Positions 1-16,181 of a stretch of DNA of 64,000 nucleotides are shown one piece after another. Made by a program: the position numbers and the translations under genes. A model generated the notes under the pieces. That model did not search any database, was not told the DNA's origin, and saw nothing but the letters and a program-made list of their open reading frames with translations. Source of the DNA: Dehalococcoidia bacterium (GTDB lineage: Bacteria; Chloroflexota; Dehalococcoidia; Lucifugimonadales; UBA1123); assembly GCA_965215735.1 (NCBI GenBank), contig CBDCEF010000002.1, positions 394,161 to 458,160 of the forward strand. Direction: 5' to 3'. Positions within the stretch are counted from its first letter, which is position 1, and each line of letters opens with the position of its first letter.

Positions 1-778
1 GCATCTCGCAGGTCGCGGGTACGCGGTGATAGGCACCAGCAGGCAGATGGAGCGGCTGTCGGGGCTATTCGACGAGGCTGAAGAACGCGGCGTCCGCCTG
101 TTCGGCGTGGAGCTCGACCCCAACTCGGACGAGTCCGTGCAGACCGTGATGCCCGGCCTGATCTCGCAGTTCGGACGCGTCGACTCGCTGGTCAACAACG
201 CCGGCTTCGGAGTCTGGGGGCCGGTCGACAGCCTCTCGATCGACGAGCTCAAGCTGCAGTTCGAGGCCAATTTCTTCGGAGCCGTCAGGATGGTCCACTC
301 GGTGCTCCCGCAGATGCTGTCTCGCGGGTCCGGGCGGATCGTGAACATAAGCTCCGTGCTCGGTCGCATGGGCACGCCGTTCAATGGCGCCTACGTGTCC
401 AGCAAGTACGCGCTGGAGGGACTGAGCGAGTCGCTGAGGGCTGAGGTGAAGCCGTTCGGGGTGCATGTGTCTCTTGTGGAGCCGGGACTTTTCGCGACCG
501 ACTTCCAGAAGAACCAGCTCAAGGCCGCTCGCTCACAGGACGAGGACTCGGCCTATGCCCAGTACGTCGAGCGATACAACAGCCGTCACGACCAGTTCGA
601 GTGGTTTGCCTCAGACCCCATCAAGGTGGCCAGGGTCATTGAAAAGGCGCTCAGTTCGCGTCGACCCGCGTTCAGGTACCCGGTTGGACTCGACGCCCGG
701 ACCGGCATGTTCGGCGCTCGGGTTTTACCGGAGCGGCTGTTCCACGCACTGCTCGACCGCGCGACGATAGGCCGCTGA
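1..778 (+). CDS. short-chain dehydrogenase/reductase (SDR) family oxidoreductase, 5' end outside window
   Basis: The frame is open from nt 2 (HLAGRGYAVIGTSR...), so the Rossmann N-terminus lies upstream. NNAG (VNNAGFG), catalytic Ser (ISSVLG) and YxxxK (YVSSKYALE) motifs are present. Confidence 0.85.
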   Translation, partial: HLAGRGYAVIGTSRQMERLSGLFDEAEERGVRLFGVELDPNSDESVQTVMPGLISQFGRVDSLVNNAGFGVWGPVDSLSIDELKLQFEANFFGAVRMVHSVLPQMLSRGSGRIVNISSVLGRMGTPFNGAYVSSKYALEGLSESLRAEVKPFGVHVSLVEPGLFATDFQKNQLKAARSQDEDSAYAQYVERYNSRHDQFEWFASDPIKVARVIEKALSSRRPAFRYPVGLDARTGMFGARVLPERLFHALLDRATIGR

Positions 779-827: not shown

Positions 828-1229
828 GCAAGGCGGCCGGGCGGTCGCTGCTTCTACCTCGTCGAGGCCCAGCTTCGCGTGTGTAGGGGGAGAGGAAAGT
901 CCGAGCTCCACCGGACAGGATGCCCGCTAACGGCGGGGCGGGGTGACCCGACGGAAAGTGCCACAGAGACATACCGCCCACCCCCAGCGTTTCCACGACC
1001 GCTGTGTGTGGTGGGTAAGGGTGAAAAGGTGAGGTAAGAGCTCACCGTCCCGGCAGCAATGCGGGGAGCCAGGCAAACCCCATCCGGAGCAAGGCCAAAT
1101 AGGGGGCTAAGGGAGTCCGGCCCAGCCCCGGGTTGGCCGCTCGAGCCTGTCGGCAACGGCAGGCCTAGATGGATGGCCGCCGTCCCGACTCCGGTCGGGA
1201 TACAGAACTCGGCTTACAGGCCGCCTTGC
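828..1229 (+). ncRNA. rnpB: RNase P RNA, bacterial type A
   Basis: Universal blocks are read directly: GGAGAGGAAAGTCCGAGCTCCA, ACGGAAAGTGCCACAGAGA, GGGTAAGGGTGAAAAGGTGAGGTAAGAGCTCACCG, CCGGAGCAAGGCCAAATAGGGGG and ACAGAACTCGGCTTACAGG. The P1 helix pairs 5' GCAAGGCGGCC (828-838) with 3' GGCCGCCTTGC (1219-1229). ORFs called across it are spurious. Confidence 0.93.
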
Positions 1230-1407
1230 GTTCTGTCCACGCAGCGCCGGATGCCTGCCCTTCTGTCCGCCGTCATTCCCTCACATAGTGTGTCCTGTAC
1301 TCCGACATGGTACGGGAGCCCACAGAGTAGCCCGCCGCCCTCAATTCACAGCCCTGCATGGTTTCGTTCGCATTGACACGGCAAGTACACAACTGTAACG
1401 TTGTGTT

Positions 1408-1533
1408 ATGTTGCCAGATTTCGACCGTGCTGGTCTGCTTCCGCCTGGAGTTCATTGGGTTGAGTGGGAGGAACTGCTCCGCAGGTTCGGATCTAATCCT
1501 TGGAGAATGCGACTCATGGCAGGACTGGCATGA
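1408..1533 (+). pseudogene. 41-aa N-terminal fragment resembling DUF6932 / nucleotidyltransferase-like proteins
   Basis: Hand translation gives MLPDFDRAGLLPPGVHWVEWEELLRRFGSNPWRMRLMAGLA*. From memory this matches the conserved N-terminus (LLPPGIH..tWeEf..rFG.n..R..L..gL) of a roughly 150-aa family. The ORF is too short for the ORF track. Its stop overlaps the next start (ATGA). Confidence 0.4.
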
Positions 1534-1955
1534 TTAAGAATGAGCGACAGTACAGGATCACCAGGGCCCAGGTGGAACGCTTCGAGCGGACAATTAAGGA
1601 ACTCAGGAGTCGCAGTCAGACGGAAAGCAACGTGCACCCCCTTATCGCTAGGGCTCAGGAGGACGCGGTAAGCAGCCAACTGGAGGACCTCAAGAGGGAG
1701 ATGAGGGAGTATGAGTCCCTGAAGACCAGCGAGTTCCCGATAGATGAACTCGAAGTAGTGTCTGGCCTGCCCTTAATGCTAATCAAGGCGAGGATCGCCA
1801 GGGGAATGAGCCAGAGGGACCTCGCTGAGCGAATCGGTCTGAAGGAGCAACAGATACAGCGTTACGAGGCCACCGACTACGCTTCAGCCAGCCTATCCCG
1901 GATCAGGGAAATAGTGAGCGGGTTGAGCGGCAAAGTCGATACCGCGGGATCATAA
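1530..1955 (+). CDS. XRE-family helix-turn-helix protein (antitoxin-like)
   Basis: C-terminal HTH: MSQRDLAERIGLKEQQIQRYE. The N-terminal IKNERQYRITRAQVERF helix is typical of HigA-like antitoxins. The start is taken at the ATG at 1530, which overlaps the upstream stop; the ORF track starts at 1500. Confidence 0.7.
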   Translation: MIKNERQYRITRAQVERFERTIKELRSRSQTESNVHPLIARAQEDAVSSQLEDLKREMREYESLKTSEFPIDELEVVSGLPLMLIKARIARGMSQRDLAERIGLKEQQIQRYEATDYASASLSRIREIVSGLSGKVDTAGS

Positions 1956-2086
1956 CTAGTACTCGAATTGCCAGGGACTCTAGATGCCCCAGTTCCGGTA
2001 GAAAGGAACTTTGTTACCTTCCAAAGGGAAATTAGGTCGGAGAACCTGGCCGATGCATTCGTCATCGACTTCGTACGTCAAAGTTA

Positions 2087-2224
2087 CCGGAGCAAGGCCA
2101 AATAGGGGGCTAAGGGTGTCCGGTCCAGCCCCGGGTTGGCCGCCGTCCCGACTCCGGTCAGGATACAGAACTCGGCTTACAGGCCGCCTTGCGTTCTGCC
2201 TGCGCAGCGCCGGATTCCTGCCCT
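2087..2224 (+). repeat. second, partial copy of the rnpB 3' region plus about 30 nt of its downstream flank
   Basis: Near-identical to 1084-1262 (CCGGAGCAAGGCCAAATAGGGGGCTAAGGG...ACAGAACTCGGCTTACAGGCCGCCTTGCGTTCTG...). It has a 40-nt internal deletion between GGCCGC direct repeats. Confidence 0.85.
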
Positions 2225-2268
2225 ATACCTGCGGTCATTTCCGCGCAGGGAGACCTTTGCATAGCTTC

Positions 2269-2295
2269 GTCATTCCGGCGAAGGCCGGAATCCAG
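2269..2295 (+). repeat. REP-like hairpin, family 1 (GTCATTCCGGCGAAGGCCGGAATCCAG)
   Basis: Perfect stem CATTCCGGC/GCCGGAATG. It belongs to the same family as 11 further copies in this window. Confidence 0.8.
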
Positions 2296-2337
2296 AAGGC
2301 CGTAGGTAGTGCCTGGTAGCTTGCGACCAAGCCCTTT

Positions 2338-2375
2338 TCACCCTCACCCCAACCCTCTCCCTCAAGGGAGAGGGG
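2338..2375 (+). repeat. REP-like hairpin, family 2 (CCCTCACCCCAACCCTCTCCC-loop-GGGAGAGGG)
   Basis: Stem CCCTCTCCC/GGGAGAGGG sits immediately 3' of the LRR gene stop on the minus strand and may act as a terminator. Related copies lie at 10821-10858 and 10870-10906. Confidence 0.65.
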
Positions 2376-2376
2376 G

Positions 2377-4386
2377 TTATTCAATGGTCTCCACAGGCGG
2401 GCTGCCCTGCGGCCAGCCGAAGAGGAAGAGGTTGACGACCTGTACCACCTCGTCCCTGGTGAAGATGCCGCCGAACAGGTAATCGCCAATAGCAGTGATG
2501 ACTTCTTCCCTGCCGATCGCGCCGTCGTGGTCATCGTCGTATGGAAGCCCCAGCGTTAGTTGGACAGCCGCCGTGTTGCCGTTGCCATCTGAGTCCTCCG
2601 CTACATCTGCGGCGATGTCCACAGTCACCACGCCGACGGCGTTCGGCGTCACGTCGAACGTATAGACCGAGTCGCCATCGCTGCCGACAAAGTTGCCGGC
2701 TGAACCGTTGTCCACGGTAACGTCGCTCACGGCAAAGCCGTTGACCGGTTCGCTGAACGTGGCCGTCACGGGAATTGGTGAGTTAATCCTCACCTGGTAG
2801 TTCGCGGAGTCGATGCTTATGATCACCGTCGGTATGCCGCAGAACGGCAATCCAAGTTCACCGAGGTCGTTGCTGACGACACGCTGAAGCGCCGCTGGAA
2901 TGCACCCGGCCAGCTGGTTGTCGCGGAGGTATAGGCCACTCAGATTGGGCAGGTTGCCCAACTCCGGGGGTATTGACCCGGTCAGCTGGTTGTTGTGGAG
3001 GTACAGGCCCTCCAGCTTGGAGAGGTTACTTAACTCCGGTGGTATCGACCCGCTCAAGCGGTTCTCCCAGAGGTATATTCCGGTGACTCTTCCATCCGCG
3101 TCGTTGGTGACGCCGTACCATTCTCTAATTGGCCGGTTGCTCAGCCAGTTGGAATTGTCCTCCCAGTTCGCACCATCCGTGGCGCTGTAGAGATCGGCCA
3201 GCACGGCCCGGTCCTCCTGCGAGTCCACCGGTGCGCAGCTGCTGCCGTGGACTGTGTCTATGCCCTGTAGCCATGTCTGGAATGCGTTATCGACAGGGGC
3301 GCATAGACCAGCGTTGCTGAAGAAGGCTAACCTCTCCAGAGATGTCAGCCTTGTCAAGCTGTCTGGGATATCTCCCCTCAGTTCATTCTGACTGAGCCAC
3401 AGATATCTCAGGTTGGACAGGCTACCGAGTTCGCCGGGAATCGTGCCGCTCAACTGGTTTCCGTTGAGCCACAGATCCGTCAGGTTGGACAGGTTACCGA
3501 GTTCGCCGGGAATCGTGCCGCTCAACTGGTTTCCGTTGAGCCACAGATCCGTCAGGTTGGACAGGCTACCGAGTTCGCCGGGAATCGTGCCGCTCAACTG
3601 GTTGTCCCGAAGCGACAGATCCGTCAGGTTGGAGAGATTCCCCAGTTGTGTTGGAATCGTACCGGACAACTGGTTACCCCAAAGCATCAGTTCCCTCAGA
3701 CTGGCCAGATCGCCCAGTTCTGCGGGGATTGTCCCTGTCAGCTGGTTATCCCAGAGCCATAGATTTATCAGGTTGGACAAGTTGCCCAGTTGCGGAGGAA
3801 TCGTGCCGGTCAACTGGTTGTCCAAAAGCCACAGTACTATCAGATTGGATAGGTCACCCAGTTGCGGGGGAATCGTGCCGGTCAACTGGTTGCGCGAGAG
3901 GTTCAATCCTGTCAGGTTGGACAGCCCACCCAGTTCTGATGGGATTGTCCCGGTTAACTCGTTACCCCCGAGGTCGAGTCCTGTCAACTTGGACAGGTTG
4001 GACAGCTCACTGGGAATCGTTCCGGCCAGCTGGTTAAAGGAGAGGTCCAGATATGTCAGACTGGACAGGTTTCCCAGCTCGCCGGGAATCGTACCGGACA
4101 GTCCTCTGCCACCCAGCGATATACTAATTACTCTCATTGGCGTTCCACCCACGGAGATGCCGTCCCAGTCCTCGATGGGAGTGTCCGCAGCCCAGTTCAG
4201 CGTCCCTGTCCCCAACAGGGTGTCTCTGACATCGAGCAGGACTTCGCAATCGGCCGCCAGCGCAGTCTCGCTGGCTGAGACCGCGCCCTGGCTGGCACAC
4301 TCGGTCTGCGCGTTGGCAAGGCTGTCAGGCCCCCACAGTACGGCAACGACCAAAGCAACTGTCAGGCCCGTTACGAGATATCTCAT
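2377..4386 (-). CDS. secreted leucine-rich-repeat protein (plant-type 24-residue LRRs) with C-terminal Ig-like and dockerin/EF-hand-like modules
   Basis: More than 15 repeats follow LxxLxxLxLxxNQLTGTIPxxLGxLSN. There are two LRRNT-like caps (...NWAADTPIEDWDGISV...; ...NWLSNRPIREWYGVT...). The signal peptide is MRYLVTGLTVALVVAVLWGPDSLANAQ. The C-terminus reads DDDHDGAIGREEVITAIGDYLFG. The start is taken at 4386 (MRYLV); the ORF is open to 4461. Confidence 0.85.
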   Translation of the reverse strand: MRYLVTGLTVALVVAVLWGPDSLANAQTECASQGAVSASETALAADCEVLLDVRDTLLGTGTLNWAADTPIEDWDGISVGGTPMRVISISLGGRGLSGTIPGELGNLSSLTYLDLSFNQLAGTIPSELSNLSKLTGLDLGGNELTGTIPSELGGLSNLTGLNLSRNQLTGTIPPQLGDLSNLIVLWLLDNQLTGTIPPQLGNLSNLINLWLWDNQLTGTIPAELGDLASLRELMLWGNQLSGTIPTQLGNLSNLTDLSLRDNQLSGTIPGELGSLSNLTDLWLNGNQLSGTIPGELGNLSNLTDLWLNGNQLSGTIPGELGSLSNLRYLWLSQNELRGDIPDSLTRLTSLERLAFFSNAGLCAPVDNAFQTWLQGIDTVHGSSCAPVDSQEDRAVLADLYSATDGANWEDNSNWLSNRPIREWYGVTNDADGRVTGIYLWENRLSGSIPPELSNLSKLEGLYLHNNQLTGSIPPELGNLPNLSGLYLRDNQLAGCIPAALQRVVSNDLGELGLPFCGIPTVIISIDSANYQVRINSPIPVTATFSEPVNGFAVSDVTVDNGSAGNFVGSDGDSVYTFDVTPNAVGVVTVDIAADVAEDSDGNGNTAAVQLTLGLPYDDDHDGAIGREEVITAIGDYLFGGIFTRDEVVQVVNLFLFGWPQGSPPVETIE
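3409..3624. repeat. three tandem 72-bp units inside the LRR gene
   Basis: CAGGTTGGACAGG(C/T)TACCGAGTTCGCCGGGAATCGTGCCGCTCAACTGGTTTCCGTTGAGCCACAGATCCGT occurs at 3409-3480, 3481-3552 and 3553-3624. The first two units are almost identical, and each unit encodes one LRR. Confidence 0.9.
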
Positions 4387-4710
4387 TACGCGTCGTCTAC
4401 CCTGGCTGCCACCGACTCCCCCATGTGCTGTCACGTTTCCAGAGCAGCCTATCACCGACAAGTCGTCTTTGTGAGTGACGAACCTCTCGCTGACTCCCCC
4501 ATTTCCAGGAAGGTTTAGAGCTCACCCTGGACACGCCCAAGGCCGAAAATTGGAATCGTCCCGGTGCAGTCTGCTACAGTTAACCTATAAAGCGAACCCG
4601 GGCCCCCGGGATCGAGCGGCATCTGTCCATAGACATTTTTCCCTTCTCCATCTCCCCTCCGCCTGTGCACGCTGCTGTTTTTACCCCAATCAGACTAAGG
4701 AAGAATCTCC

Positions 4711-4770
4711 CCGTATGCCATCTGCACCCCCATCTACTCGCCGTATGCCATCTGCACCCTCATCTACTCA
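4711..4770 (+). repeat. 30-bp tandem duplication spanning the helicase start codon
   Basis: CCGTATGCCATCTGCACCC(C/T)CATCTACTC(G/A) occurs twice, giving RMPSAPPSTR/RMPSAPSSTH and two in-frame ATGs (4715 and 4745). Confidence 0.85.
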
Positions 4771-6109
4771 CCGCCGCTCCGGACTCAGACAAGAGTACGA
4801 CGTCGTCTGCACTGATTGCAGCGAGTCTACTACCGTCCCGTTTCGTCCGGCTCCCGACCGGCCCGTGTACTGCCGTCCCTGCTTCACAGACCGGCGGGAC
4901 TATCAGGCAGCGGCAGAAGGAAAGACCGAACCTCGATCAGACGCCGCAGACCACGTGTTTCCCGGCATACAGGTGAGCGACGCCACCAGGGCAGCGGTTG
5001 CCCGGATGGACATAACGGAGCCCACTCCGATCCAGTCCAGGGCCATCCCCCATCTTCTCGATCGACGGGACCTGATTGGTCAGGCGCGCACCGGCTCAGG
5101 CAAGACACTGGCTTTCTCGATACCCATGGTGGAGCACTGCGATCCGTCGGTTCGGAGGATACAGGGTCTCGTACTTGTGCCCACCCGTGAGCTGGCCATC
5201 CAGGTCGCCGGTGTAATGGAGGCCCTGGCCACGCCGCACCGCCTGAGGGTGACATTGCTCTACGGCGGGAGGTCTCTGAGACCGGAGTACTCAGCGCTTG
5301 GTAGGGGACCGCAGATCGTAGTCGGCACTCCCGGACGTACACTGGACCACCTGAGACAGGGTAAGCTGGACCTGAGAGCAGTCAGGTTGCTCATTCTGGA
5401 CGAGGCCGACGAGATGCTGGACAAGGGTTTCCAGCACGACGTCGAGGCCATTATCAGTGGTACTCCGTCAGATCGTCAGACGGCGCTCTTCTCGGCAACC
5501 ATGCCCGAGTGGGTGGCAAAGACCTCCAAGAACCAACTGCACAAACCCATCAAGGTGGAGGTGGACGCCGACCTGCGGAAGCTGCCGTCGGTGAATCACG
5601 TGGTCTACTCGATACGTAAAGATGAAAAGATCGATGCGCTGCGAACGCTGCTGGACGAGCGCGACGCAGGCCCGGTGATCGTTTTCGGCCGGACCAAGCG
5701 CGGCGTGAGAACGCTCGCCAGACGACTCGAAACGTTCGGGTACAGCGTCGGGGCGCTACAGGGCAACATGAGCCAGAACGCGCGCGAACGGGTGATGAAA
5801 GATTTCCGTGCAGGCCATACGTCTGTGCTGGTCGCGACCAACGTGGCCGCCCGAGGCCTGGACATCGAGGGCATCGAGCACGTCATCAACTTCGATCTGC
5901 CGGACTCGGAGCTGCTCTTCACCCACCGTGTGGGCCGGACCGGACGCATGGGGCGCGAAGGCGAGGCAATCACGTTCGTAACCCCTGACGAGGAGAAGAA
6001 GTGGGATGAGATCGAGCGCGGTCTTGGCGCCCGGCTCGCCCGCAAGCCTTGGACTGCCTACCGCCGGAGGGCTAGGACCAACCAGGCTCACTCCGACCGG
6101 TACAGATAG
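4715..6109 (+). CDS. DEAD-box ATP-dependent RNA helicase with N-terminal CxxC...CxxC zinc-ribbon
   Basis: Motifs present: Q motif (TPIQ), motif I (ARTGSGKT), PTRELA, TPGR, DEAD (LDEADEML), SAT, ARGLD and HRVGRTGR. The N-terminus reads VVCTDCSESTTVPFRPAPDRPVYCRPCF. AAGGAAG lies about 12 nt upstream of the ATG at 4715; the ORF is open from 4475. Confidence 0.9.
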   Translation: MPSAPPSTRRMPSAPSSTHRRSGLRQEYDVVCTDCSESTTVPFRPAPDRPVYCRPCFTDRRDYQAAAEGKTEPRSDAADHVFPGIQVSDATRAAVARMDITEPTPIQSRAIPHLLDRRDLIGQARTGSGKTLAFSIPMVEHCDPSVRRIQGLVLVPTRELAIQVAGVMEALATPHRLRVTLLYGGRSLRPEYSALGRGPQIVVGTPGRTLDHLRQGKLDLRAVRLLILDEADEMLDKGFQHDVEAIISGTPSDRQTALFSATMPEWVAKTSKNQLHKPIKVEVDADLRKLPSVNHVVYSIRKDEKIDALRTLLDERDAGPVIVFGRTKRGVRTLARRLETFGYSVGALQGNMSQNARERVMKDFRAGHTSVLVATNVAARGLDIEGIEHVINFDLPDSELLFTHRVGRTGRMGREGEAITFVTPDEEKKWDEIERGLGARLARKPWTAYRRRARTNQAHSDRYR

Positions 6110-6161
6110 GGGATAGAGAGAGTCAGCTTCCTCCGGGTGAGGGTGAAACAACTTTCGTTGC

Positions 6162-9100
6162 TCACTGACTCTGTGTCACCAACTCCAGAATCGCTGAGAC
6201 CCTTCTCCCAACTTCAGCGAAGTGCTGGACCTCATCGGGCAGCAGCGACCTCCCCAGCACCTTGCGCTCCCGATACGACAGCCACTTCTTGAGCACCTGG
6301 TAGCCCCCGAGCTTGTAGCTCCACACGTTGGCCGGCACGTTGCGCCAGTACGCCCGGTCGTTTAGGTAGACGTCGAACGTGGAGTCGCCCAGCGTCGAGA
6401 CCGCACCGCCCAGCGCCTCGCGCTCCTCCGACGTGTACGCCCTCTCGACGACCCGACCCTGGCCCGGCATCACCGCCTGGCCCGATCCGAAGTGACCCCA
6501 GCCCATCATGACGTCGAAGTCGTCGCCGTCCATGTTGCCCCCGTTCGTGGTGGAAGGCACGGCGATGACCGCGATCTCAGGACGCAGCACTCCAGACGTG
6601 ATCCCTGGGACCGGCGTGTCCGAGTCGAGCAGCGCCGCAAGCCTTCGGCCACGCGCCGCCGACTCCGCCAGCTTCCCCGCAGATCCGACCTCATCCCCGT
6701 CCGGCCAGCCAGGAATCGGGATGCGAGGCCACTCCATCCTGAGCGCCCCCGCGTTCGCCTCACGGTACGCCGGATCGTGCAGCACCGCGAGGACGTGATG
6801 GAACAGCTCCTCGACTTCCGCGCCGATGCATTCGAGGTAGTGCTGTGCGGCCGCCGACAGGTTGGGACGACGCTGGATTCCGTCTCCTTCGACTCCCAGC
6901 CCGTCGTCGCGGAGATAGGCAGGGAACATGTTGGCGCCGCGCTCAATGAGGTGCCGTGCCCCGATATGTACTATGAAACACGCCTGCGGTTCTGCGGCTC
7001 CTTTCCGTATGTGTTGCGCATTAGAGAACCACAGATTTCCCTCAAATACATGAGGTCTGTAGTCACCTACAGGGCGTCTCAGCAATCCACCTTCTGATTC
7101 CCAGTAGAGCCATCGATGATCGAAGGGTCGGTAAGCATGACGTAGGAAGCCCTCACCTTTGGAAGACTGTGCGAGGCGTGCGTTACGCACCGACCTGGCA
7201 TTGAAGCCCGATGTATTTTTCATTGCTCCAGGATGGCGTCGTGCGATCTCTTCATGACTCAAGTCAGCATTGAAGTAGTCTGTGACACGCTCCTTCAGAC
7301 GTTGTAGGTCTATGGCGACCAGAAATGAATCCCGCGCAGTCTCAACGCCCGGAAACGAGACTGGGAACAAGTCAGGCAGCGCCGGCCAGTCATGCCAGCC
7401 TTCGCTGACTGCCACTGAAGCAAATGGCAGACCAAGCGGGAGGACCGGCGAGACCTCATCGTACAGCGCGGCCGGCTTGGACTCCGACGTCTCGGTCAAC
7501 TCCTCGCGCTTGGACTGTCCCCACAGGTTGCGAAAGCCGATCGTCTCGGTCGGAGCGTGATCGGCCTTTCGCACCAGCGTAGTGATCGCTGTCCCGACCT
7601 GTATGCCGACGGGATCGACTGGAGTCGAAAAGATGCTGGGGTCGGGAGAGCCGTCAGGCGCGACCTTACCGGTCCTGTACTTGTCGCCGTTGAGACTGTC
7701 GATGCGTATAGCGTCGAACTCTCTCAGGTAGCGCTCCCTCATGCCGGTGAACGACAGCCCGTCCAGCCACGAGTAGTTCGATATGAAGCACACCACGCCC
7801 TGTCCGGTCTTCTCGGTGATGCGATGCTCTGCCATCCTGAAGAAGCGCACGTACAGGTCGTTCAGACCCTGCCCCTCCGGTCGCCGTACCAGCCAGGTGT
7901 TCCGGTATGCGGCCGACAGCTCCCGCTCCTCGTCCACCGCCATGCCCGCGTACCCGTTGTACGGAGGGTTGCCCAGGATGACCAGCACCGGCGTGTCCTG
8001 CTTCACACGCTCGGCGCGGTCGCGTTCCTCCTCAAGCTCAGGGAACGGCAAGGGCTTCTGCACCGTCGGCTCCCAGCCGGTGAGCGCGTTCGTGAGAAAT
8101 ATCCCGGCGCGCTCCGTCTCGTCTGACAGCGGTGCGTCGAGGTCCTGCATCGTCAATCCGACTTGCAGGTGCGCCACCACGAATGGAGCAGGCATGATCT
8201 CGAACCCGAACACGCGCTCGGTGGCCGCCTGCTTCACCCGCGACCCGACCAGCGCACCAAGTCCACTGCCCTCCAGGTTCTGCGCGATTCGGCGCAGAAC
8301 CTCGCCGACGTACGCGCCTGTGCCACAGCACGGGTCGAGCACATAAACGTTCTCAGCCGCCAGCCCGTCTTCGATGCCGAGGTCGTCTTTGAGCGCCATG
8401 TCCACTCGCGCGACCATGTACCGCACAACCTCGGACGGCGTGTACCAGACTCCGAGCTGCTTTCTCAGCACAGGGTCGAACGCTTCCAGGAACGGCTCGT
8501 AGAAGTATTGCACCGCCTCTCCCTCGTCGAACCGCTCGAAGAACGCCTCACGGTCAACGCGGTCGAGCGCGTCGGCTGTCCAGTCAAGCACCTCGACCAG
8601 TCCCAGCGGCTCCAGCTGACCGGGGTTGGAAAGCTGCTGGAACAGAGCCCTGAGCACCGGCGCGCGCAGATGCCACACAGCCAGCCGCCAGTCGAACCTG
8701 CCAGCCGGCGGCGGGGTCTCACGAGACCACAGCACCCACGCCGAGAACACTCCGTAGAAGAGCGTCTGCACCAGCGTAGACCTGAAGAACGCCGCGCCGC
8801 GGTCGCCCTCGAATCGCACGCCCAGCGCGTCCTCCAGCGCCGAGCGCAGAACTGAGAGAGAAGATGAGTCTCCTGAAGACTCGACCCGCGCCAGTCCGTC
8901 CCTCGCGTAAGACGCAAGCAGCCAAGCGAGATCGCGCGGCTCTGCGAGCGTGGCGCGATGGGACAGCGCGCGGCACAGGTACTCGCCAAATCCGGCGCCG
9001 ACCCGACGGGCGAACGCCCGCGGCCTCTGAAGCCCGGACTCGAACTCCTCCTCGGAGTCGGCCAGCCTGAAGGTCTCCAGCTTCGCGGGTCTGCCCTGCG

Positions 9101-9506
9101 CGTCCTCTCCCAGCAGCACGAAGTCGCGCGTGTTCGTGACCAGCACGAGCCGGTACTTCTCCCAGTAACCGCTGACCTGTCTGCTTTCGGCAGTCAGCCA
9201 TGCGTTGTCACCAGGACCTTTGACTTCGACAACGCCGCGCTCGGGGGCTTGTCCGGCGCGAGGTCTGCCCTTCTGCACCTGCCCGGCGGCGTAGAGTCCG
9301 ATGTCTGGGTGTCCCGCGCCCTGGTTGGCCATCTCGACGACGCAGAACACCTTCGGCCTGAGCGTCGCGCCGACGGCGTTGAGCAGGTTGGCGAGCGCCG
9401 GGTATGTCGACAGCTCGCCCGTCGCCCCCCCAGAGGCGCGGAGGCGGCCCAGGTCCCCAAGGTACTCCTCGACGATCGAGGTCAGCTTAGCAGCGTTCGC
9501 AGGCAT
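6162..9506 (-). CDS. large fused N6-adenine DNA methyltransferase with a type ISP-like C-terminal specificity domain and a possible N-terminal PD-(D/E)xK nuclease (type IIG-like RM enzyme)
   Basis: SAM motif I is VLDPCCGTGAY and catalytic motif IV is ILGNPPYNGYAG. The C-terminal WSYKLGGYQVLKKWLSYRERKVLGRSL resembles, from memory, the type ISP/IIG TRD C-terminus. The N-terminal GHPDIGLY...(26 aa)...GVVEVKG is a candidate PD...ExK motif. No helicase domain is present. Confidence 0.75.
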   Translation of the reverse strand: MPANAAKLTSIVEEYLGDLGRLRASGGATGELSTYPALANLLNAVGATLRPKVFCVVEMANQGAGHPDIGLYAAGQVQKGRPRAGQAPERGVVEVKGPGDNAWLTAESRQVSGYWEKYRLVLVTNTRDFVLLGEDAQGRPAKLETFRLADSEEEFESGLQRPRAFARRVGAGFGEYLCRALSHRATLAEPRDLAWLLASYARDGLARVESSGDSSSLSVLRSALEDALGVRFEGDRGAAFFRSTLVQTLFYGVFSAWVLWSRETPPPAGRFDWRLAVWHLRAPVLRALFQQLSNPGQLEPLGLVEVLDWTADALDRVDREAFFERFDEGEAVQYFYEPFLEAFDPVLRKQLGVWYTPSEVVRYMVARVDMALKDDLGIEDGLAAENVYVLDPCCGTGAYVGEVLRRIAQNLEGSGLGALVGSRVKQAATERVFGFEIMPAPFVVAHLQVGLTMQDLDAPLSDETERAGIFLTNALTGWEPTVQKPLPFPELEEERDRAERVKQDTPVLVILGNPPYNGYAGMAVDEERELSAAYRNTWLVRRPEGQGLNDLYVRFFRMAEHRITEKTGQGVVCFISNYSWLDGLSFTGMRERYLREFDAIRIDSLNGDKYRTGKVAPDGSPDPSIFSTPVDPVGIQVGTAITTLVRKADHAPTETIGFRNLWGQSKREELTETSESKPAALYDEVSPVLPLGLPFASVAVSEGWHDWPALPDLFPVSFPGVETARDSFLVAIDLQRLKERVTDYFNADLSHEEIARRHPGAMKNTSGFNARSVRNARLAQSSKGEGFLRHAYRPFDHRWLYWESEGGLLRRPVGDYRPHVFEGNLWFSNAQHIRKGAAEPQACFIVHIGARHLIERGANMFPAYLRDDGLGVEGDGIQRRPNLSAAAQHYLECIGAEVEELFHHVLAVLHDPAYREANAGALRMEWPRIPIPGWPDGDEVGSAGKLAESAARGRRLAALLDSDTPVPGITSGVLRPEIAVIAVPSTTNGGNMDGDDFDVMMGWGHFGSGQAVMPGQGRVVERAYTSEEREALGGAVSTLGDSTFDVYLNDRAYWRNVPANVWSYKLGGYQVLKKWLSYRERKVLGRSLLPDEVQHFAEVGRRVSAILELVTQSQ

Positions 9507-9657
9507 GGCTATACTCTACCCCAGCAACGATGGTGCAGGTAAGGATTTAACCCTCACGAGGCTGCGTCATTCCAGGCGGCCAGATGCATAGGGGATTTTC
9601 GATCCCGAAGAGCGGTGCCGACTGACCTACAGGCGTTCGTGAGATGCGACGTAGAGG

Positions 9658-10410
9658 CTAGGTGCCGCTGTCCGGCCTGTAGGGCGGCTCTATTCCGTGT
9701 TCCCGCAGCAGATGCTCCAACTCACGGCGCGCATGTTCCGATTCCTCGCGCGCACGTCGTTCGGAAGTCAGCGCCTGCTCAGCCTGCTCAAGTGCGCGGC
9801 GATTCTCGTAGGTGTCGGGCAGGTGCTCGTTCTCGACAGGGTCGAAGAACCGGAACCACTCGGCATCAGCGTGTAGCTCGAGTCCCAACACCTCACTCAC
9901 ACCGACGTGTTTTCCGTCCACCTCCCGCACCTCGGTTGGCCGATACTCGCCATCAACCAGCATGTACCCGCGCAGACGAGGCTCCAAGTATCCCTCTTCC
10001 GTTGGATCGTATATCCAGTACTCACGCACACCAAGGTCCTGGTACAGTTCGTACTTCGTCACCGTGTCCCGGCGCACCGACGTCGAGGACATGATCTCAA
10101 GCACGAGATCGGGCACTCGTCCCTCGATCCAGGTCTGGAAGATGTTGCGCCTGTGTCTCTTGTGAGTCCGGGTGACCACGAACACGTCCGGCGTTACCAC
10201 ACTCGACGTTATACCCTCCTCGTAGTAGAGGAACATGTCCGCGCCGACCCAAGTTGTCGGGTCGTCCTCGAACCAGCTGGTCAGGGCCGCATGAGCATAG
10301 GTCAGCGGGAAGAGTTGGTGCTCGGACTCTGCCAAAGGTTCGTCATCGTCTATGGGGTAGTGGACTTCGTCTGCACGAGTCGCTTCCTGCTTGAGTCGGG
10401 GTGTGGTCAT
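9658..10410 (-). CDS. Uma2-family (DUF820) endonuclease, paralog 1
   Basis: Conserved blocks: YPIDDDEPLAESE, PDVFVV, VPDLVLEIMS, REYWIYDP. It has a C-terminal coiled-coil tail. Four further paralogs occur in the window. Confidence 0.85.
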   Translation of the reverse strand: MTTPRLKQEATRADEVHYPIDDDEPLAESEHQLFPLTYAHAALTSWFEDDPTTWVGADMFLYYEEGITSSVVTPDVFVVTRTHKRHRRNIFQTWIEGRVPDLVLEIMSSTSVRRDTVTKYELYQDLGVREYWIYDPTEEGYLEPRLRGYMLVDGEYRPTEVREVDGKHVGVSEVLGLELHADAEWFRFFDPVENEHLPDTYENRRALEQAEQALTSERRAREESEHARRELEHLLREHGIEPPYRPDSGT

Positions 10411-10559
10411 CGTAAAACCTCCACCGGGTGGCTGATACAGTCTATCACACGAGACAGATTGCGAAATCCGTATTCCCCGTGACTGCGCCGCAAATCATAT
10501 ATCGCAGAGTTCCCATCCGTCATTGGCATGAAAATGACCAGCTACACAGCCCTCAACTC

Positions 10560-10586
10560 GTCATTCCGGCGGAGGCCGGAATCCAG
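10560..10586 (+). repeat. REP-like hairpin, family 1
   Basis: GTCATTCCGGCGGAGGCCGGAATCCAG. Confidence 0.8.
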
Positions 10587-10820
10587 TGGTGGGGCACGGG
10601 CAGTCTCCGCATTTTCATTGTTCCTTGTGCAGTTCTCAACTGCATGGGTGATTCCCGCGAAAGAACAGCCTGCCCCGCACTCGATGCGGGGTCACCCCGT
10701 ACTCAGATACGGGGCGGGAACCCACGAAGTGGCTCGCCGCTCGGCAATCCATCAGACCGCCCAGCGAGAATACGGCGGCGCCACACAAGAATGGTCTTAG
10801 AAAAGGTGGTTCCTTATGCC

Positions 10821-10906
10821 TCCTCTCCCTTGATGGGAGAGGATTGAGGTGAGGGTGACAAGTGTAATCCCCCTCATCCTAACCTTCTCCCACTAGGGGA
10901 GAAGGG
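10821..10906. repeat. two family-2 REP-like hairpins in opposite orientation
   Basis: 10821-10858 reads TCCTCTCCCTTGATGGGAGAGGATTGAGGTGAGGGTG (reverse orientation). 10870-10906 reads CCCCTCATCCTAACCTTCTCCCACTAGGGGAGAAGGG. Both lie 3' of the CoA-transferase gene. Confidence 0.65.
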
Positions 10907-10923
10907 ACTTCTCAGACACCCTC

Positions 10924-12348
10924 TTACCCCGAGCGCCCCGGCCACACAGGCTGGTGGTAGCCGAGAGGCACCGATGGACGGGCCCAGTATGGTTGCGTCT
11001 CGGAAAGCTGCACGACAGGGGCGAGATGTCCCAGCCGGCCTCCGGGTACGTCGCTGGCTGTCGACCAGCTTTCGATCTCTTCGGCCGTGAATTCCGCGGG
11101 CACGTCCCGGAGCTCGACTTCGGGCACCTGTCCGCGGCTCAAGAGCCAGCGTCCGGTCTGGGCTAGCGAGATCTGCACCATCCAGCTTCCACCCTCCCGC
11201 ACTCGCCGCGCCAGCGCGACCATTGCGCCGAAGGCCATGAGGTATCCGGTCAGGTAGTCTATCGCGGAGACAGGGTAGAACTGGGGACCCGGCTCCGAGC
11301 CGGGGTACAGCTCACCCTGGCGGTGGGTTATGCCACTTACGGTCTGCACTACGGTGTCGAACCCGCGACGCTCCGACCACGGCCCCAGCCTTCCGAAGGC
11401 GGACAGCGAGACGTACACGATTCCCGGGCGGACCGCGGCCAGGTCCTGGGGAGACAGCCCACGCTTCGCGAGAGTCCCTGGTCGGTACCCCTGGGAGAAG
11501 ACGTCGGCCTGTCTCACCAGCCCGCGCATGGTCTCCAGATCACCCTCTTCGCGCAGGTCCAGGTGGGCGGAGAGCTTGCCGTGTCCGGTATCGTACTCTT
11601 GGGCCCCTATGCTCGGCAGATGCGGAGCGGTGATTTTCATCACGTCCGCGCCATGTTCGGCGAGGGTTCGCGCGCAGGTCGGGCCGGCCAGCACGCGCGT
11701 GAGGTCCAGAACTCTCACTCCTGACAGCGGTCTGGATCCCTCCGGCAGCGCCTCCGGCGGACTGTCGCCGATCTTCCTGATCTCAAGCAAAGGGAGCGAA
11801 GCGACCGCGGCAGCCTGTGGATGCACGGCCCACTCTTCCATGGAGCGTACCATTCCACCTGCGCCTTTCGCCGCGATGATCGCTTCCTCAAGCTCAAGCG
11901 CGTCCCACCTGGCTACGGCCCTGCGCACCGCCTCTCCATCCTCTTCTTCGACACCCAGCACTCCCAGCGCCGCGTCGCGGTGATTGGGGAAGTTGCAGTG
12001 CAGATAGCTCCAGCGCCCCCCTCTGGCGGGATACACGCCCATGATCGGGTGACGTTCAGCCCCGGCGGGCTCACCGTCCATGGTCATGTACTTGCTGCTG
12101 CGCAGGGAAGCCGTGGCATGTCGCGTGTTCACGCTGATCTGCTGACCGCGTCCGGTGCGCAGCTTCCAGAGGTCCGAGGCGGCAAGTCCGACCGCCGCCA
12201 AGCTCGCGGCGGCGGTTTCGCCAATTCGGAAAGGCGTCGGCAGAATGGGGTCCGCCCCGCCGTGGATCTCCACGTCGGAGGCGCGTCTCCGATCCCATCC
12301 CGCAATTGGCAGCAGGGTGGATAGGGTGTTGTCGGTCAGTGTTGCCAT
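10924..12348 (-). CDS. class III CoA-transferase (CaiB/BaiF family)
   Basis: The family signature region GVRVLDLTRVLAGPTCARTLAEHGADVMKI is present, and the length and architecture are typical. Confidence 0.85.
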   Translation of the reverse strand: MATLTDNTLSTLLPIAGWDRRRASDVEIHGGADPILPTPFRIGETAAASLAAVGLAASDLWKLRTGRGQQISVNTRHATASLRSSKYMTMDGEPAGAERHPIMGVYPARGGRWSYLHCNFPNHRDAALGVLGVEEEDGEAVRRAVARWDALELEEAIIAAKGAGGMVRSMEEWAVHPQAAAVASLPLLEIRKIGDSPPEALPEGSRPLSGVRVLDLTRVLAGPTCARTLAEHGADVMKITAPHLPSIGAQEYDTGHGKLSAHLDLREEGDLETMRGLVRQADVFSQGYRPGTLAKRGLSPQDLAAVRPGIVYVSLSAFGRLGPWSERRGFDTVVQTVSGITHRQGELYPGSEPGPQFYPVSAIDYLTGYLMAFGAMVALARRVREGGSWMVQISLAQTGRWLLSRGQVPEVELRDVPAEFTAEEIESWSTASDVPGGRLGHLAPVVQLSETQPYWARPSVPLGYHQPVWPGRSG

Positions 12349-12453
12349 GGGCTCCTACCTGTTTCGCATCCATTAGATTTGGTATAGATTATACGAAGTG
12401 AATGGCACTCATATCGAGAGTTTGGTATCAGCAGCTCAGCGGAGAGTCCGACC

Positions 12454-13230
12454 ATGACCACCCGAAGCTCGCTCAAACAGCCTCACACCGCTGACTACTC
12501 TAAGCTCGAACCGCTGCCGGATCCGCCGCGGGAGCCTGATATGAACCAGCGCAGAAGAACCAGCGCTTTCGACGGCATCCTGATTCCTCACTTTGCCGAT
12601 CGCGACGATGTGCTGGTCTCCGGAGAAGGCTACCTACGGAACAATGGGAGCAACGCGGATGAGAGGCTTGCTCCCGACTGCGTGGTGGCCTTCGGAGTAG
12701 ACGCCAGAGCCATAGAGGCCCGGAACGGCTACGTGATAAGCGAGGTTGGCAGGCCCCCGGACTTTGTGCTGGAGGTCGCATCGCGCAGCACGGGTCGTAA
12801 TGACTACACGGTGAAGCGCGAGGGCTATGCCGGGTACGGGGTACGCGAATACTGGCGCTTCGACCACACAGGCGGCAGGTTTCACGACGCCGCGCTTGCC
12901 GGGGACGTGCTTGTGGATGGTAGGTACGAACCTCTGGAGATAGTCCATGAGCCGGACGGGCTGATCTGGGGCCACAGTGAGGTTCTGGGACTGGACCTGT
13001 GCTGGCGTGACGGCGAGCTGAGGTTCCGAGACCAGCTGACCGGAGAGTTCCTGCCGACGCCGGAGGAGCAACAGACTGCTCGGATAGAGGCGGAGACCCA
13101 CGTTGAGCAGGAACATGCCGCTCGGATAGAGGCGGAGACCCACGCTGAGCAGGAACATGCCGCTCGGATAGAGGCAGAGGCCCGCGTTGCTGCGTTGGAA
13201 GCCGAACTGCGGCAGCTGCGCGGCCAGTAG
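12454..13230 (+). CDS. Uma2-family endonuclease, paralog 2
   Basis: Blocks present: PDCVVAFGV, PPDFVLEVASRST, REYWRFD. The C-terminal tail ends in ELRQLRGQ, as in the other paralogs. Confidence 0.85.
   Translation: MTTRSSLKQPHTADYSKLEPLPDPPREPDMNQRRRTSAFDGILIPHFADRDDVLVSGEGYLRNNGSNADERLAPDCVVAFGVDARAIEARNGYVISEVGRPPDFVLEVASRSTGRNDYTVKREGYAGYGVREYWRFDHTGGRFHDAALAGDVLVDGRYEPLEIVHEPDGLIWGHSEVLGLDLCWRDGELRFRDQLTGEFLPTPEEQQTARIEAETHVEQEHAARIEAETHAEQEHAARIEAEARVAALEAELRQLRGQ
13078..13185 (+). repeat. 42-bp tandem repeat (2.5 units) in the Uma2 paralog 2 tail
   Basis: GCTCGGATAGAGGCGGAGACCCACG(T/C)TGAGCAGGAACATGCC occurs twice plus a partial unit. It encodes ARIEAETHxEQEHA repeats. Confidence 0.85.
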
Positions 13231-13245
13231 AGTTCGTGAGCGATG

Positions 13246-13322
13246 ACCGCCGTCCCGACACTCCGGTCGGGATCCAGAACTCAGCTTACAGGCCGCCTTG
13301 CTATTCTGCCCGACAGCCTGCC
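13246..13322 (+). repeat. third copy of the rnpB 3' end
   Basis: GACCGCCGTCCCGACACTCCGGTCGGGATCCAGAACTCAGCTTACAGGCCGCCTTGCTATTCTGCC aligns with rnpB 1171-1240 with a few substitutions. Confidence 0.8.
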
Positions 13323-14219
13323 TTAGCGGGGCTCGGAGGGCCTGAGGTCCGCAGAGTCGAGCCGATACCATAGTGCGGCATCCGCATTGTTGGCCTCTAT
13401 GAATAGCTCAACGTCGTAATAGAGCCTGCTCTCCATTTCCGGGTCCAATTTGTCGTCCAGCATCACCGCTGCCACAACCGGATAGGCGTCCAGTCCCGTA
13501 GCCGCCCGCAGAATCTTTGCGTGATCGGTGACCTTGAGAATGTCCTCCGCATCCGCGGTGTAAGAAGCTTCGATTGCGATGTAGAATTCCGGGTCCGCGT
13601 CATCGTCAGCGAACAAGTCCCTGACCCACGTGATAATGTCGGGTTGTAGGAATGTTCTCCACGCCCTTGATCGAAGCCCGAGCGCTTCCACCTCGTCGCG
13701 GTTTTCTCTCAGCCACGTCGTCAGCCTGGCTCTGCCAACTTGCCCTGTTACTGTACGCTTCACGCCGCGCAGGTCAGCGAACAGGCCGGCGACCTCAAGG
13801 ACATCTTTGCCTGCTGCGCTCTGCGCGTAGTTGCCGCGGAAGCTGGACTGGGCTCGGACCTCTCTTCTGAACGCTTCACCCAGACCGTCGATGTCTCGCT
13901 TCACTATCTTGATGTCCCCCTCGATGCCGTCGAGCCGCCTGTCCACTTGGTCGAGCCGCCTGTCCATCTGAGCGATTTGCTGATCCACCTGGACGATTCG
14001 CTGATCCACCTGGTCGAGCCGTCTGTCCATCCCGTCCAGCCGTCTGTTCGTCTCGTTGGCATGTTCCAGCAGCGCCGCGGCGCTTTCCCTCAGCGAGGTG
14101 AGTTGCTCTGGCACTTCCAGCAGCGCCGCTGTCAGCAGCTCTCGTCTGATCGTCGCGCGGAACTCAGGGTTCTCACGGAGAACCCGGACCAAGTCGTCTG
14201 AAGTGTTGATGTTGGTCAT
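13323..14219 (-). CDS. heptad-repeat coiled-coil protein with C-terminal PD-(D/E)xK-like domain (DUF3782-like), paralog A
   Basis: Six 21-nt units at 13929-14054 encode RRLDxxD heptads. The C-terminus reads FYIAIEASYTADAEDILKVTDHAKILR. It is a paralog of 31561-32364, sharing the N-terminus DDLVRVLRENPEFRATIRRELLT / EDLLRLWHEDEEFRAASRRELLT. The family name is from memory only. Confidence 0.55.
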   Translation of the reverse strand: MTNINTSDDLVRVLRENPEFRATIRRELLTAALLEVPEQLTSLRESAAALLEHANETNRRLDGMDRRLDQVDQRIVQVDQQIAQMDRRLDQVDRRLDGIEGDIKIVKRDIDGLGEAFRREVRAQSSFRGNYAQSAAGKDVLEVAGLFADLRGVKRTVTGQVGRARLTTWLRENRDEVEALGLRSRAWRTFLQPDIITWVRDLFADDDADPEFYIAIEASYTADAEDILKVTDHAKILRAATGLDAYPVVAAVMLDDKLDPEMESRLYYDVELFIEANNADAALWYRLDSADLRPSEPR

Positions 14220-14420
14220 GTCTTGCTCTTTCTATTGGATTGTAGCCCATCCATGTGTTGAAGGCTCCCCCACCTCAAAAATTGCGAAACGCATTTTGCC
14301 TGCCCCGACCCTCCCCATCTGACACGCCACTCCGTCCTGTCCTGAAATGGATTCCCGCACACACGCAATCGGCGGTAGGGAAAGCACATCTTTGCACTTT
14401 TCTATAATTCACAGTTGCAC

Positions 14421-14449
14421 TTGACGCAACTAGCGACACTCCCTACCAT
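14421..14449 (+). promoter_or_regulatory. candidate sigma-70-type promoter upstream of the terminase genes
   Basis: TTGACG (14421-14426), a 17-nt spacer, then TACCAT (14444-14449), about 50 nt upstream of the ATG at 14502. This rests on pattern only. Confidence 0.25.
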
Positions 14450-14501
14450 GCCTGACAGTACATACGTTCTATAAGACAAACCACAGACGGAGTGTTCCGA
14501 A

Positions 14502-14858
14502 ATGAGTTCCACTTCTAACACATTGCAGCAGCTTGTATTGCGGGAGACCGACGACGGACTGGACCTTGTCCGCTTCCTCGTGGACGTAATGGACGCGGAG
14601 ATAGAGGGAGTGAAGATTACAGACCGCACCGCCGCCGCTCGTGAGCTCCTGGACCGCTGCTTCGGCAAGCCGTTCACCACCACCGACCGTACAGCGGAAG
14701 TCTCCGACGACCGGGACGATGCATCGGACGTGCTGCTCGACAGGATCATGATGGTGATCGACGAAGTATCGTCCCCGGATGAAGATAGCTGGGACCCCGA
14801 AGTCCTCGATGCGCTCGACGATGGTCTGGTGGACGACTGGGGGAGCGACAATGACTGA
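14502..14858 (+). CDS. phage terminase small-subunit-like protein
   Basis: The position directly upstream of and overlapping the large terminase fits this call. The motif DRTAAARELLDRCFGKP resembles the small-terminase helix (..a.ellldRgfGKP), and the tail is acidic. Confidence 0.5.
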   Translation: MSSTSNTLQQLVLRETDDGLDLVRFLVDVMDAEIEGVKITDRTAAARELLDRCFGKPFTTTDRTAEVSDDRDDASDVLLDRIMMVIDEVSSPDEDSWDPEVLDALDDGLVDDWGSDND

Positions 14859-16170: not shown

Positions 16171-16181
16171 GGGAGGCGCTA

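Follow-up and report, generated by a model that had tools for sequence, protein, structure and literature searches.

We analyzed a 64,000-nt stretch of a Dehalococcoidia bacterium genome (assembly GCA_965215735.1, contig CBDCEF010000002.1, positions 394,161 to 458,160; hereafter the window), in which the 3′ end of rnpB, the gene for RNase P RNA, is present three times in direct orientation. The repeats are real and mark a lineage-specific rearrangement, in which native DNA bordering a plasticity zone of leucine-rich repeat (LRR) genes was probably duplicated in segments, partly deleted, and reshuffled by recombination. Positions given herein are window coordinates, with negative values lying upstream of the window start, and G000 denotes the genome under study.

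The intact gene, a class A RNase P RNA and the sole functional copy, was located at 829–1232 on the plus strand and matched the full Rfam RF00010 model (model positions 1–367, 307 bits, E = 1e-99). Its last 163 nt were 100% identical to rnpB of the related genome G009. Two further 3′ fragments followed in the same orientation, at 2087–2224 and 13242–13311, so that an intact target and a displaced fragment at the far end, as expected of an integrated island, were both present. The partial copies are non-functional and probably act only as homology tracts. A 28-mer from the rnpB 3′ end, with up to three mismatches allowed, occurred three times in the window against none expected from 100 shuffles, ruling out chance similarity. 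Moreover, the 3.96-Mb genome held only these three copies of the end, all on the plus strand and all at the rnpB locus, and a dispersed repeat family, the outcome that the first-pass annotation had named as fatal to its own proposal, was therefore rejected. That annotation, made from the window alone, had reported the three direct ends, which were confirmed by Rfam, a repeat finder, and three-way alignment, with coordinates that were right to within a few bases (rnpB ending at 1232 and copy 3 at 13242–13311). The gene content that it gave for the DNA between the native gene and copy 2 (segment 1) and between copies 2 and 3 (segment 2) was likewise borne out by Pfam.

The origin of copy 3 is recorded at its left edge. 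In the native arrangement, rnpB is preceded by a conserved neighbor, an SDR gene (2–778, plus strand; Pfam adh_short, 4e-41), the full open reading frame (ORF) of which begins 85 nt before the window, and the ORF map of the region upstream of SDR placed a Uma2 gene, Uma2up, at −784 to −92. A second copy of this upstream block was found at 12418–13243 on the plus strand, comprising a Uma2 gene (Uma2b, 12454–13230, plus strand), its 3′ flank, and the first nine nucleotides of SDR (GTGAGCGAT). It was homologous to −820 to −78, at 90% over 663 nt and 79% over another 72 nt, with the homology spanning the Uma2 stop codon and the SDR start, and the last 52 nt of the block differed from the Uma2–SDR junction of G009 at 1/52 positions. 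Copy 3 itself (13242–13311, plus strand) contains the last ~60 nt of rnpB and ~10 nt of flank, matching 1172–1238 at 88.6% (56/61 identical to the native gene). At its left edge, SDR nucleotide 9 is fused to rnpB at ~1174 with a GAT microhomology at the joint, and on the other side it adjoins the stop codon of a convergent gene for a coiled-coil protein, CC298. Alignment thus shows copy 3 to be the tail of a second Uma2–SDR–rnpB block after a ~1.25-kb deletion that ran from SDR codon 3 to rnpB ~1174; copy 3 is the remnant of an rnpB copy adjoining the ancestral downstream region. An attP-derived boundary would show element DNA here, and since the left neighbor of copy 3 is the host's own upstream region, this junction counts against an att origin. 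Repeats confined to the part of the gene that an attP would carry, with element DNA inside both of them, were not what we found. Separately, Uma2b carries an expanded tandem array near its C-terminus, with three 42-nt repeats (13063–13188), two units (84 nt) more than the upstream Uma2.

Segment 2 also proved to be made of native DNA. Its first gene encodes an LRR protein with a Big_12 domain and 72-nt repeat units (2377–4461, minus strand; Pfam LRR_1/LRR_4/LRR_8/Big_12; repeat families D1 and D2), and is a member of the tandem LRR arrays that fill this locus in relatives. It is followed by a DEAD-box helicase with an N-terminal zinc finger (4475–6109, plus strand; Pfam DEAD, Helicase_C, zf_Tbcl_2), a methyltransferase (MTase)–Uma2a module (6162–10410, minus strand) composed of a 1114-aa N6-methyltransferase with a Type ISP C-terminal domain (6162–9506; Pfam N6_Mtase/Type_ISP_C) and Uma2a (9658–10410), and a family III CoA-transferase (10924–12348, minus strand; Pfam CoA_transf_3, 3e-59). 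The helicase and CoA-transferase are single-copy native genes without a second copy in the study genome. Orthologs of the former lie at other loci in relatives (75–83% nucleotide identity), and those of the latter occur in nearly every genome of the genus (78–85%). In G013 and G271 the two are convergent neighbors, 53 nt apart, at another locus (82–85% identical), while in the window they are split by the MTase–Uma2a pair, which in G002 and G005 is found at other loci. In the study genome the MTase occurs once more (C4:133889–137237), next to a Uma2b-like gene, and the distribution suggests that the MTase–Uma2 module is a mobile or often relocated defense-like unit. The tetranucleotide distance of segment 2 fell between the 83rd and 95th percentiles of 4-kb genome windows, against 97.6 for a core AcrB region, and a foreign composition was not seen; the comparison of 1.2–13.3 kb with core genes that the first-pass annotation had suggested gave no foreign signal in segment 2, and segment 1 was too short to judge. 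The foreign cargo of an island was not recovered, given that the DEAD, CoA-transferase, MTase, and Uma2 genes all have 75–85% counterparts in the genus. On these comparisons of sequence, segment 2 is shown to be a mosaic of native genes, a dispersed Uma2–MTase module, and a duplicated Uma2 block, and not foreign cargo.

Several further observations concern the same segment. Two dispersed hairpin repeats, REP-like TCGTCATTCCGGCGAAGGCCGGAATCCAG and CACCCTCACCCCAACCCTCTCCC, separate copy 2 from the 3′ end of the LRR gene (2267–2380; repeats D12 and I1). The first is present at 2267–2295 and 10558–10586, with 28 copies genome-wide under strict and ~100 under loose matching, and the second at 2334–2361 and, inverted, at 10835–10862, with 17–24 genome copies; both elements were found at gene ends and at the module boundaries of segment 2. 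The MTase–Uma2 module was located at window 6162–10410, G000:C4:132860–137237, G002:C1:2996915–3001006, and G005:C1:2166380–2171021. Uma2 paralogs are very numerous (70–90% nucleotide identity) and are candidate recombination substrates. Finally, the neighbors of the DEAD/CoA-transferase loci in G013, G271, and G002 (L099–L102) mapped to positions scattered over three contigs in the study genome, and gene order in the genus is therefore strongly scrambled.

We compared the locus with those of relatives, which are metagenome-assembled genomes (MAGs), many of them single-contig chromosomes, and which, given their naming style and LRR-rich content, we presume to be sponge-associated symbionts. 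The order Uma2–SDR–rnpB was kept in G002, G005, G006, G009, and G257, and the genus-wide order was Uma2, SDR, rnpB, a phage remnant (terminase and/or portal), and an enolase-superfamily gene. Terminase and/or portal genes stood by rnpB, directly or past an LRR array, in 13 genomes of the genus (G001, G002, G003, G005, G010, G011, G012, G013, G014, G015, G018, G040, and G395). The portal was ~0.3–0.6 kb from rnpB in six (G003, G010, G011, G012, G014, and G015), terminase and portal began ~0.75 kb 3′ of rnpB in G018, and in G257 the terminase was found past the LRR array, ~15 kb downstream. In the window, the corresponding DNA is at 13323–17577, a prophage remnant conserved across the genus (Pfam Terminase_6N/6C, Phage_portal), with CC298 (13323–14219, minus strand), the large terminase (14779–16170, plus strand; Terminase_6N/6C), and the portal (16360–17577, plus strand; Phage_portal). 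Because the rnpB–terminase/portal order is conserved in relatives, the DNA to the right of 13323 represents the ancestral downstream neighborhood of rnpB. The check for direct succession that the first-pass annotation had called for thus turned out in its favor, in that rnpB of relatives precedes, directly or past an LRR array, the CC298, terminase, portal, and enolase region. Together with the site of G009, which is empty for segment 1 (see below), these joins indicate that the repeats bracket lineage-variable material.

The variable material in relatives is dominated by LRR genes. All members of the study clade (G000, G001, G002, G005, G006, G009, and G257) had one to many minus-strand LRR genes between rnpB and terminase. 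Large tandem arrays of at least four genes per genome, with 72-nt units, were observed in G001 (L037), G006 (L038), and G005 (L034), and the array paralogs shared just 35–65% protein identity. In G010, G011, G012, and G014, LRR arrays sit 3′ of the enolase gene instead. The terminase and portal module (14779–17577; relatives L035–L048, L095, and L097) is accompanied by a small upstream ORF and has open frames at 62–87% amino acid identity, and the portal alone was kept in G003, G010, G011, G012, G014, G015, G040, and G395. The module looks like a long-lived, possibly domesticated, prophage remnant, and its genus-wide presence by rnpB may be a relic of integration there.

Segment 1 has a different history. 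Copy 2 (2087–2250, plus strand) comprises rnpB 1084–1232 minus 40 nt and then ancestral post-rnpB flank, and is a non-functional fragment that scored 36.5 bits in RF00010, where the cut-off is 100. Two blocks were matched, 2087–2143 to 1084–1140 at 96% and 2134–2224 to 1171–1261 at 93% (repeat families D8 and D5), such that the tract 2087–2224 corresponds to the last 149 nt of rnpB and 32 nt of flank. The missing 40 nt remove the P18 hairpin region between TGGCCGC repeats on either side, and the remaining gene sequence is identical to native rnpB at 105/108 positions, with three substitutions. Weaker homology was traced by alignment with G009 to ~+55 nt past the gene (~2250), and the copy 2 flank was colinear with the native rnpB flanks of G009 and G001. 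The flank of the native gene in the window (1233–1287, plus strand), by alignment of the native, copy 2, and G009 flanks, is a diverged allele of the ancestral one and forms the right part of the tract that is duplicated in copy 2 (D5).

In G009, at 92–95% identity to the study genome in aligned blocks around the locus, the single rnpB has a 3′ end identical to the native gene and leads straight into the flank and LRR gene found past copy 2 in the window; flank, REP elements, and LRR gene of G009 all run colinear with the window sequence there. Relative to G009, the study genome has ~0.96 kb extra, bracketed by a ~200-nt duplication that extends from rnpB 1084 to +55. Between these brackets is the segment 1 core (1288–2086, plus strand), with a 41-codon DUF6932 N-terminal ORF (~1410–1535; 41 aa, PF22014, 8.6e-10) overlapping an XRE-family helix-turn-helix gene (1533–1955; HTH_3, 4.7e-9) and a GC content of 54%, compared with 59% for the genome. 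This core was missing from the rnpB site in G009 and the other relatives examined. A paralog of the DUF6932–XRE pair is present at G000:C4:11412–12274 (72–76%), and copies elsewhere in the genus, 70–78% identical, are at other loci, none adjoining rnpB; a donor-like order of rnpB followed by DUF6932–XRE was looked for across the genus and none was found. The alignments show in part that copy 2 is the ancestral position of the rnpB 3′ end, beside the LRR gene, and that the functional gene now lies 1 kb to the left. Since a simple tandem duplication cannot give new DNA inside a bounded ~200-nt repeat, segment 1 is a bounded insertion with target duplication. The event would fit a Campbell-type single crossover, homology-facilitated illegitimate recombination with DNA from a relative, or site-specific integration by a lost or trans-acting enzyme, among which RecA-dependent single-crossover (Campbell-type) insertion and homology-facilitated illegitimate recombination seem the most likely routes.

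Duplications that reach beyond rnpB, and partial rnpB copies, recurred in other genomes. Downstream same-strand fragments were identified within the genus in G005 (three), G002 (one), and G006 (one), and in other families of the order in G046 (127 nt at 4.3 kb), G310 (56 nt at 2.4 kb), and G232 (67 nt at 0.4 kb). The left ends of the fragments fell at rnpB positions ~209, 241, 256, 323, 331, and 344–352, with no common crossover position. In G005, the last 192 nt of rnpB, its flank, and 1.15 kb of the LRR gene were duplicated together (1471 nt at 88%). In G046, sequence from upstream of rnpB was repeated 8.4 kb downstream, with a second colinear repeat 0.9 kb beyond each rnpB end. In G368, the duplicated tract takes in the whole of rnpB together with 147 nt of the sequence preceding it, and the two copies are separated by a PIN-domain gene. 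Hence extragenic, colinear, same-strand sequence was included in the duplicated tracts of the window (the Uma2b block and the +55 flank) as well as those of G005, G368, and G046, and deletion junctions with microhomology (GAT at copy 3 and TGGCCGC in copy 2) were present in the redundant copies. As a separate observation, G368, which belongs to another family, has two near-full-length tandem rnpB genes (L091, G368:C1:1318000–1327500, oriented 1601–3882), which score 275 and 235 bits and are 82–85% identical.

Neighboring genes have been fragmented in the same manner, as seen for CC298 in G001, a 195-nt pair in G002, and an enolase-superfamily fragment by vapBC in the window. The two internal 160-nt CC298 fragments of G001 (94%) are inside its LRR array, and they imply that the fragmentation process is not specific to rnpB. 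One copy of the G002 repeat lies between rnpB and the LRR gene and the other past the portal gene. Viewed by itself, this repeat (L036, oriented 1730–1924 and 9435–9629) is direct, 99% identical, and interleaved with the rnpB pair, while the enolase-superfamily fragment is a 51-nt direct repeat (21110–21160 and 22324–22374, 84%) across a vapBC (PIN) pair. A genome-wide scan for short flanking direct repeats returned ~30 pairs. Lastly, the G002 fragment (G002_f1) and the third G005 fragment (G005_f3) have an orthologous junction, including 350 nt of the LRR 5′ region, yet each carries the rnpB variants of its own genome. This combination of a shared junction with genome-specific variants points to gene conversion from the master rnpB gene, which can also explain why similarity often stops at the rnpB 3′ end.

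A number of observations weigh against an origin by duplication and decay. All 10 partial copies, from seven genomes, keep the exact rnpB 3′ end, lie downstream, and are in direct orientation; kept 3′ ends are the classical att signature, and random duplication with decay needs an extra argument to account for them. The repeat itself ends within a few bases of the rnpB 3′ end in G046, G232, G310, and G002. Segment 1 adds new DNA, framed by a bounded ~200-nt repeat, at a site that is empty in G009, and the DNA between the copies does not all derive from a duplicated unit: neither the segment 1 core nor the DEAD/MTase/CoA-transferase mosaic is a copy of adjacent DNA, and extra insertion or translocation steps are therefore needed. 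In addition, a phage remnant adjoins rnpB throughout the genus, integrase-bearing prophages occur at the rnpB 3′ end in other bacteria (L112), and the toxin–antitoxin (TA)-like XRE module, Uma2 nucleases, and restriction–modification (RM)-like methyltransferase are cargo typical of mobile islands.

These same features are what would be expected if decayed or trans-mobilized integrative elements, with an attP mimicking the rnpB 3′ end, had inserted serially and then lost their integrases or relied on a recombinase encoded elsewhere, a scenario that would apply mainly to segment 1 and that we consider somewhat unlikely. In its favor, an intact rnpB with direct 3′ fragments downstream recurs in four genomes of the genus (G000, G002, G005, and G006) and in three other families (G046, G232, and G310), the segment 1 site is empty in G009 and terminase or portal is near rnpB in other genomes of the genus, several repeats stop at the gene end, and the cargo is defense- and TA-like. 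Searches for the enzyme gave no support. Genome-wide, no tyrosine recombinase (PF00589) was found within 20 kb of rnpB in 15 genomes of the genus, nor any on the contig of the window, and no serine recombinase (PF00239) was found within 20 kb of rnpB in 12 genomes, with no match at all in the study genome. Pfam scans detected no recombinase in the main ORFs of window 1–40 kb or among the larger ORFs of comparable arrays in eight relatives, in agreement with the absence of an integrase from both segments reported by the first-pass annotation, so that neither approach found an integrase inside or near the segments. Intervening ORFs in the arrays of relatives encoded a reprolysin-like protease, a LuxR response regulator, IS21 and IS6 transposases, an HNH-methylase, and thiolase, enoyl-CoA hydratase, HEPN, PIN, and DUF6602 proteins. 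Further points against such elements are the left side of copy 3, which is host upstream DNA joined by deletion, the native genes and normal composition of segment 2, the lack of a common crossover position, the homology that enters flanks or upstream DNA in G005, G046, and G368, and the CC298 fragments, which mark a process that is not rnpB-specific. Of the two readings offered by the first-pass annotation, segmental duplication has therefore gained, through the copy 3 junction, the native segment 2, and homology past rnpB, while integrase-mediated islands have lost ground in view of the missing recombinase and variable boundaries.

Attachment at rnpB nevertheless has precedent among viral genomes, which counts for integrative elements. 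The common bacterial rnpB 3′ motif was present in 44 IMG/VR contigs. One of these (L112, IMGVR_UViG_3300044812_000037) carries a full rnpB (295 bits), with a tyrosine integrase 44 nt further on and a large terminase after that. Another, 46 kb long (L127/L107, IMGVR_UViG_3300045988_174042), has at its termini 95-nt direct repeats of the rnpB 3′ end, adjoined by ABC-transporter and radical-SAM genes, and a third (L144) has a 25-nt rnpB tail by an integrase. Hence phages of some other bacteria do appear to use the rnpB 3′ end as an attachment site; in the literature searched, no description of rnpB as an attachment site was found. The genus-specific rnpB 3′ end, however, was on no IMG/VR viral contig, which tells against its use by such elements in this lineage. 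The search for rnpB fragments by integrases that had been recommended at the outset thus succeeded for other bacteria and failed for the lineage itself. Two candidates were rejected as rnpB-integrated prophages, L136 because its integrase adjoins two tRNA genes and L118 because its integrase lies on the rnpB 5′ side. In L128, also from IMG/VR, the rnpB 3′ end is followed by a CI repressor.

Comparison with known systems bears on the same choice. Islands and prophages at the 3′ ends of tRNA and tmRNA genes, placed there by tyrosine integrases, are captured by the Islander/TIGER definition (PMC4383910). The rnpB locus resembles these islands in its intact stable-RNA gene, displaced direct 3′ fragments, lineage-variable intervening DNA, and tandem arrays. 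It differs in having no integrase in or near the units, variable repeat boundaries, homology that extends into the flank and upstream, one boundary that is a deletion junction, and a main segment of native DNA. Prophages at rnpB in other bacteria (L112, L127/L107) share with the locus the 3′ end of a class A rnpB and a phage packaging module nearby, but the tyrosine integrase that L112 carries 44 nt from its rnpB end has no counterpart in the window, and the L112 terminase is of the TerL_ATPase/TerL_nuclease type, compared with Terminase_6N/6C in the window.

The closest published analog of the rnpB array is provided by the ssrA islands of Dehalococcoides, in the same class, which are likewise tandem units 3′ of a single-copy essential stable-RNA gene in a region of high plasticity. 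Those islands have a uniform 20-bp repeat and a single insertion position, 333/334 (McMurdie et al. 2011, PMC3146451). Sixteen of them have a conserved six-gene integration module by attL, with DsiB/DsiA, DsiB being a CcrB-like large serine recombinase, and some units without integration genes were proposed to be cis-mobilizable or fixed (PMC3146451). This shared design of tandem islands (PMC3146451) speaks for integrative elements at rnpB. Here, in contrast, the target is rnpB, the repeats are 30–200 nt with differing left ends, and the genome has no serine recombinase; neither the DsiB/DsiA module by attL nor the ssrA-type target and repeat was recovered. With tandem or segmental duplication followed by decay, the locus has in common colinear same-strand partial copies, the inclusion of neighbors (Uma2, LRR, and CC298), a microhomology deletion junction, gene conversion between copies, and the expansion of a paralogous array. 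It departs from plain duplication and decay in that only 3′ fragments of rnpB are present and that segment 1 consists of novel DNA enclosed by a bounded 200-nt duplication, for which an insertion step is needed.

A related possibility, which we regard as unlikely, is that the rnpB 3′ end serves as an attachment site in sponge-type Dehalococcoidia, where a recombinase encoded at another locus would insert, accrete, and excise small integrase-less LRR, TA-like, and defense cassettes, with the array doubling as a platform for shuffling eukaryote-like LRR surface proteins. If true, this would constitute the rnpB counterpart of the ssrA islands of Dehalococcoides.

The placement of the fragments relative to genes could also reflect selection, with rnpB ends acting as bidirectional terminators for convergent LRR and CC298 genes or as homology anchors for LRR shuffling. 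A convergent LRR 3′ end lies directly past native rnpB in G001, G002, G005, G006, and G009 and directly past copy 2 of G000, two G005 fragments (f1 and f2), and the G006 fragment (f1), copy 3 adjoins the convergent CC298 stop codon, the terminal stem-loop is kept in fragments, and copies are homogenized within each genome. Yet tandem duplication of a unit of rnpB 3′ end plus LRR gene gives the same pattern passively, the fragments gather substitutions and the 40-nt deletion, and the cargo outside the genus is unrelated (thiolase, enoyl-CoA hydratase, PIN, and HEPN), leaving a selected functional array of cassettes highly unlikely.

It is less likely still, and extremely so, that the repeats are an assembly artifact, with metagenome assembly having strung strain variants of one hypervariable locus together into false tandem copies. 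Contamination of this MAG is estimated at 7.6%, and G198 has SDR–rnpB on two contigs. Against this, the copies in the window differ by substitutions, by the 40-nt and 1.25-kb deletions, and in their neighbors, analogous arrays are present in the independent single-contig chromosomes G002, G005, G046, and G368, and junctions are common to different genomes. The second rnpB of G198, on a 19-kb contig, had been considered as a mobile element and was rejected, as it represents either an SDR–rnpB overlap or a haplotig.

If segmental duplication, deletion, and reshuffling of native DNA did shape the locus, as we favor, its history may be reconstructed as follows. The ancestral order would have been Uma2, SDR, rnpB, (CC298), the terminase/portal remnant, and enolase, with rnpB at the left edge of a recombination-prone plasticity zone. 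In the study clade, an array of fast-evolving LRR genes would then have grown between rnpB and the phage remnant by repeated, mostly tandem, segmental duplication, with units that extended leftward into or past rnpB and rightward into CC298, and redundant copies would have been trimmed by deletion. The ~0.96-kb insertion with its ~200-nt duplication presumably parted the functional rnpB from copy 2, by way of DNA bearing a diverged allele of rnpB plus flank. Gene conversion would keep the partial copies similar to the master gene, and these copies may in turn favor unequal crossing-over. A dedicated site-specific recombinase would have had no part in this process.

Direct repeats of the 3′ ends of stable-RNA genes are routinely read as att scars, and island-calling software delimits elements by them. 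The locus described here presents an att-like picture without an integrase, one that duplications, deletions, and gene conversion along the border of a plasticity zone probably produced, and an island call at this site would mislabel the native DEAD helicase and CoA-transferase genes as horizontally acquired. It also documents the expansion of arrays of LRR (‘eukaryote-like’) genes in uncultured Dehalococcoidia with scrambled gene order.

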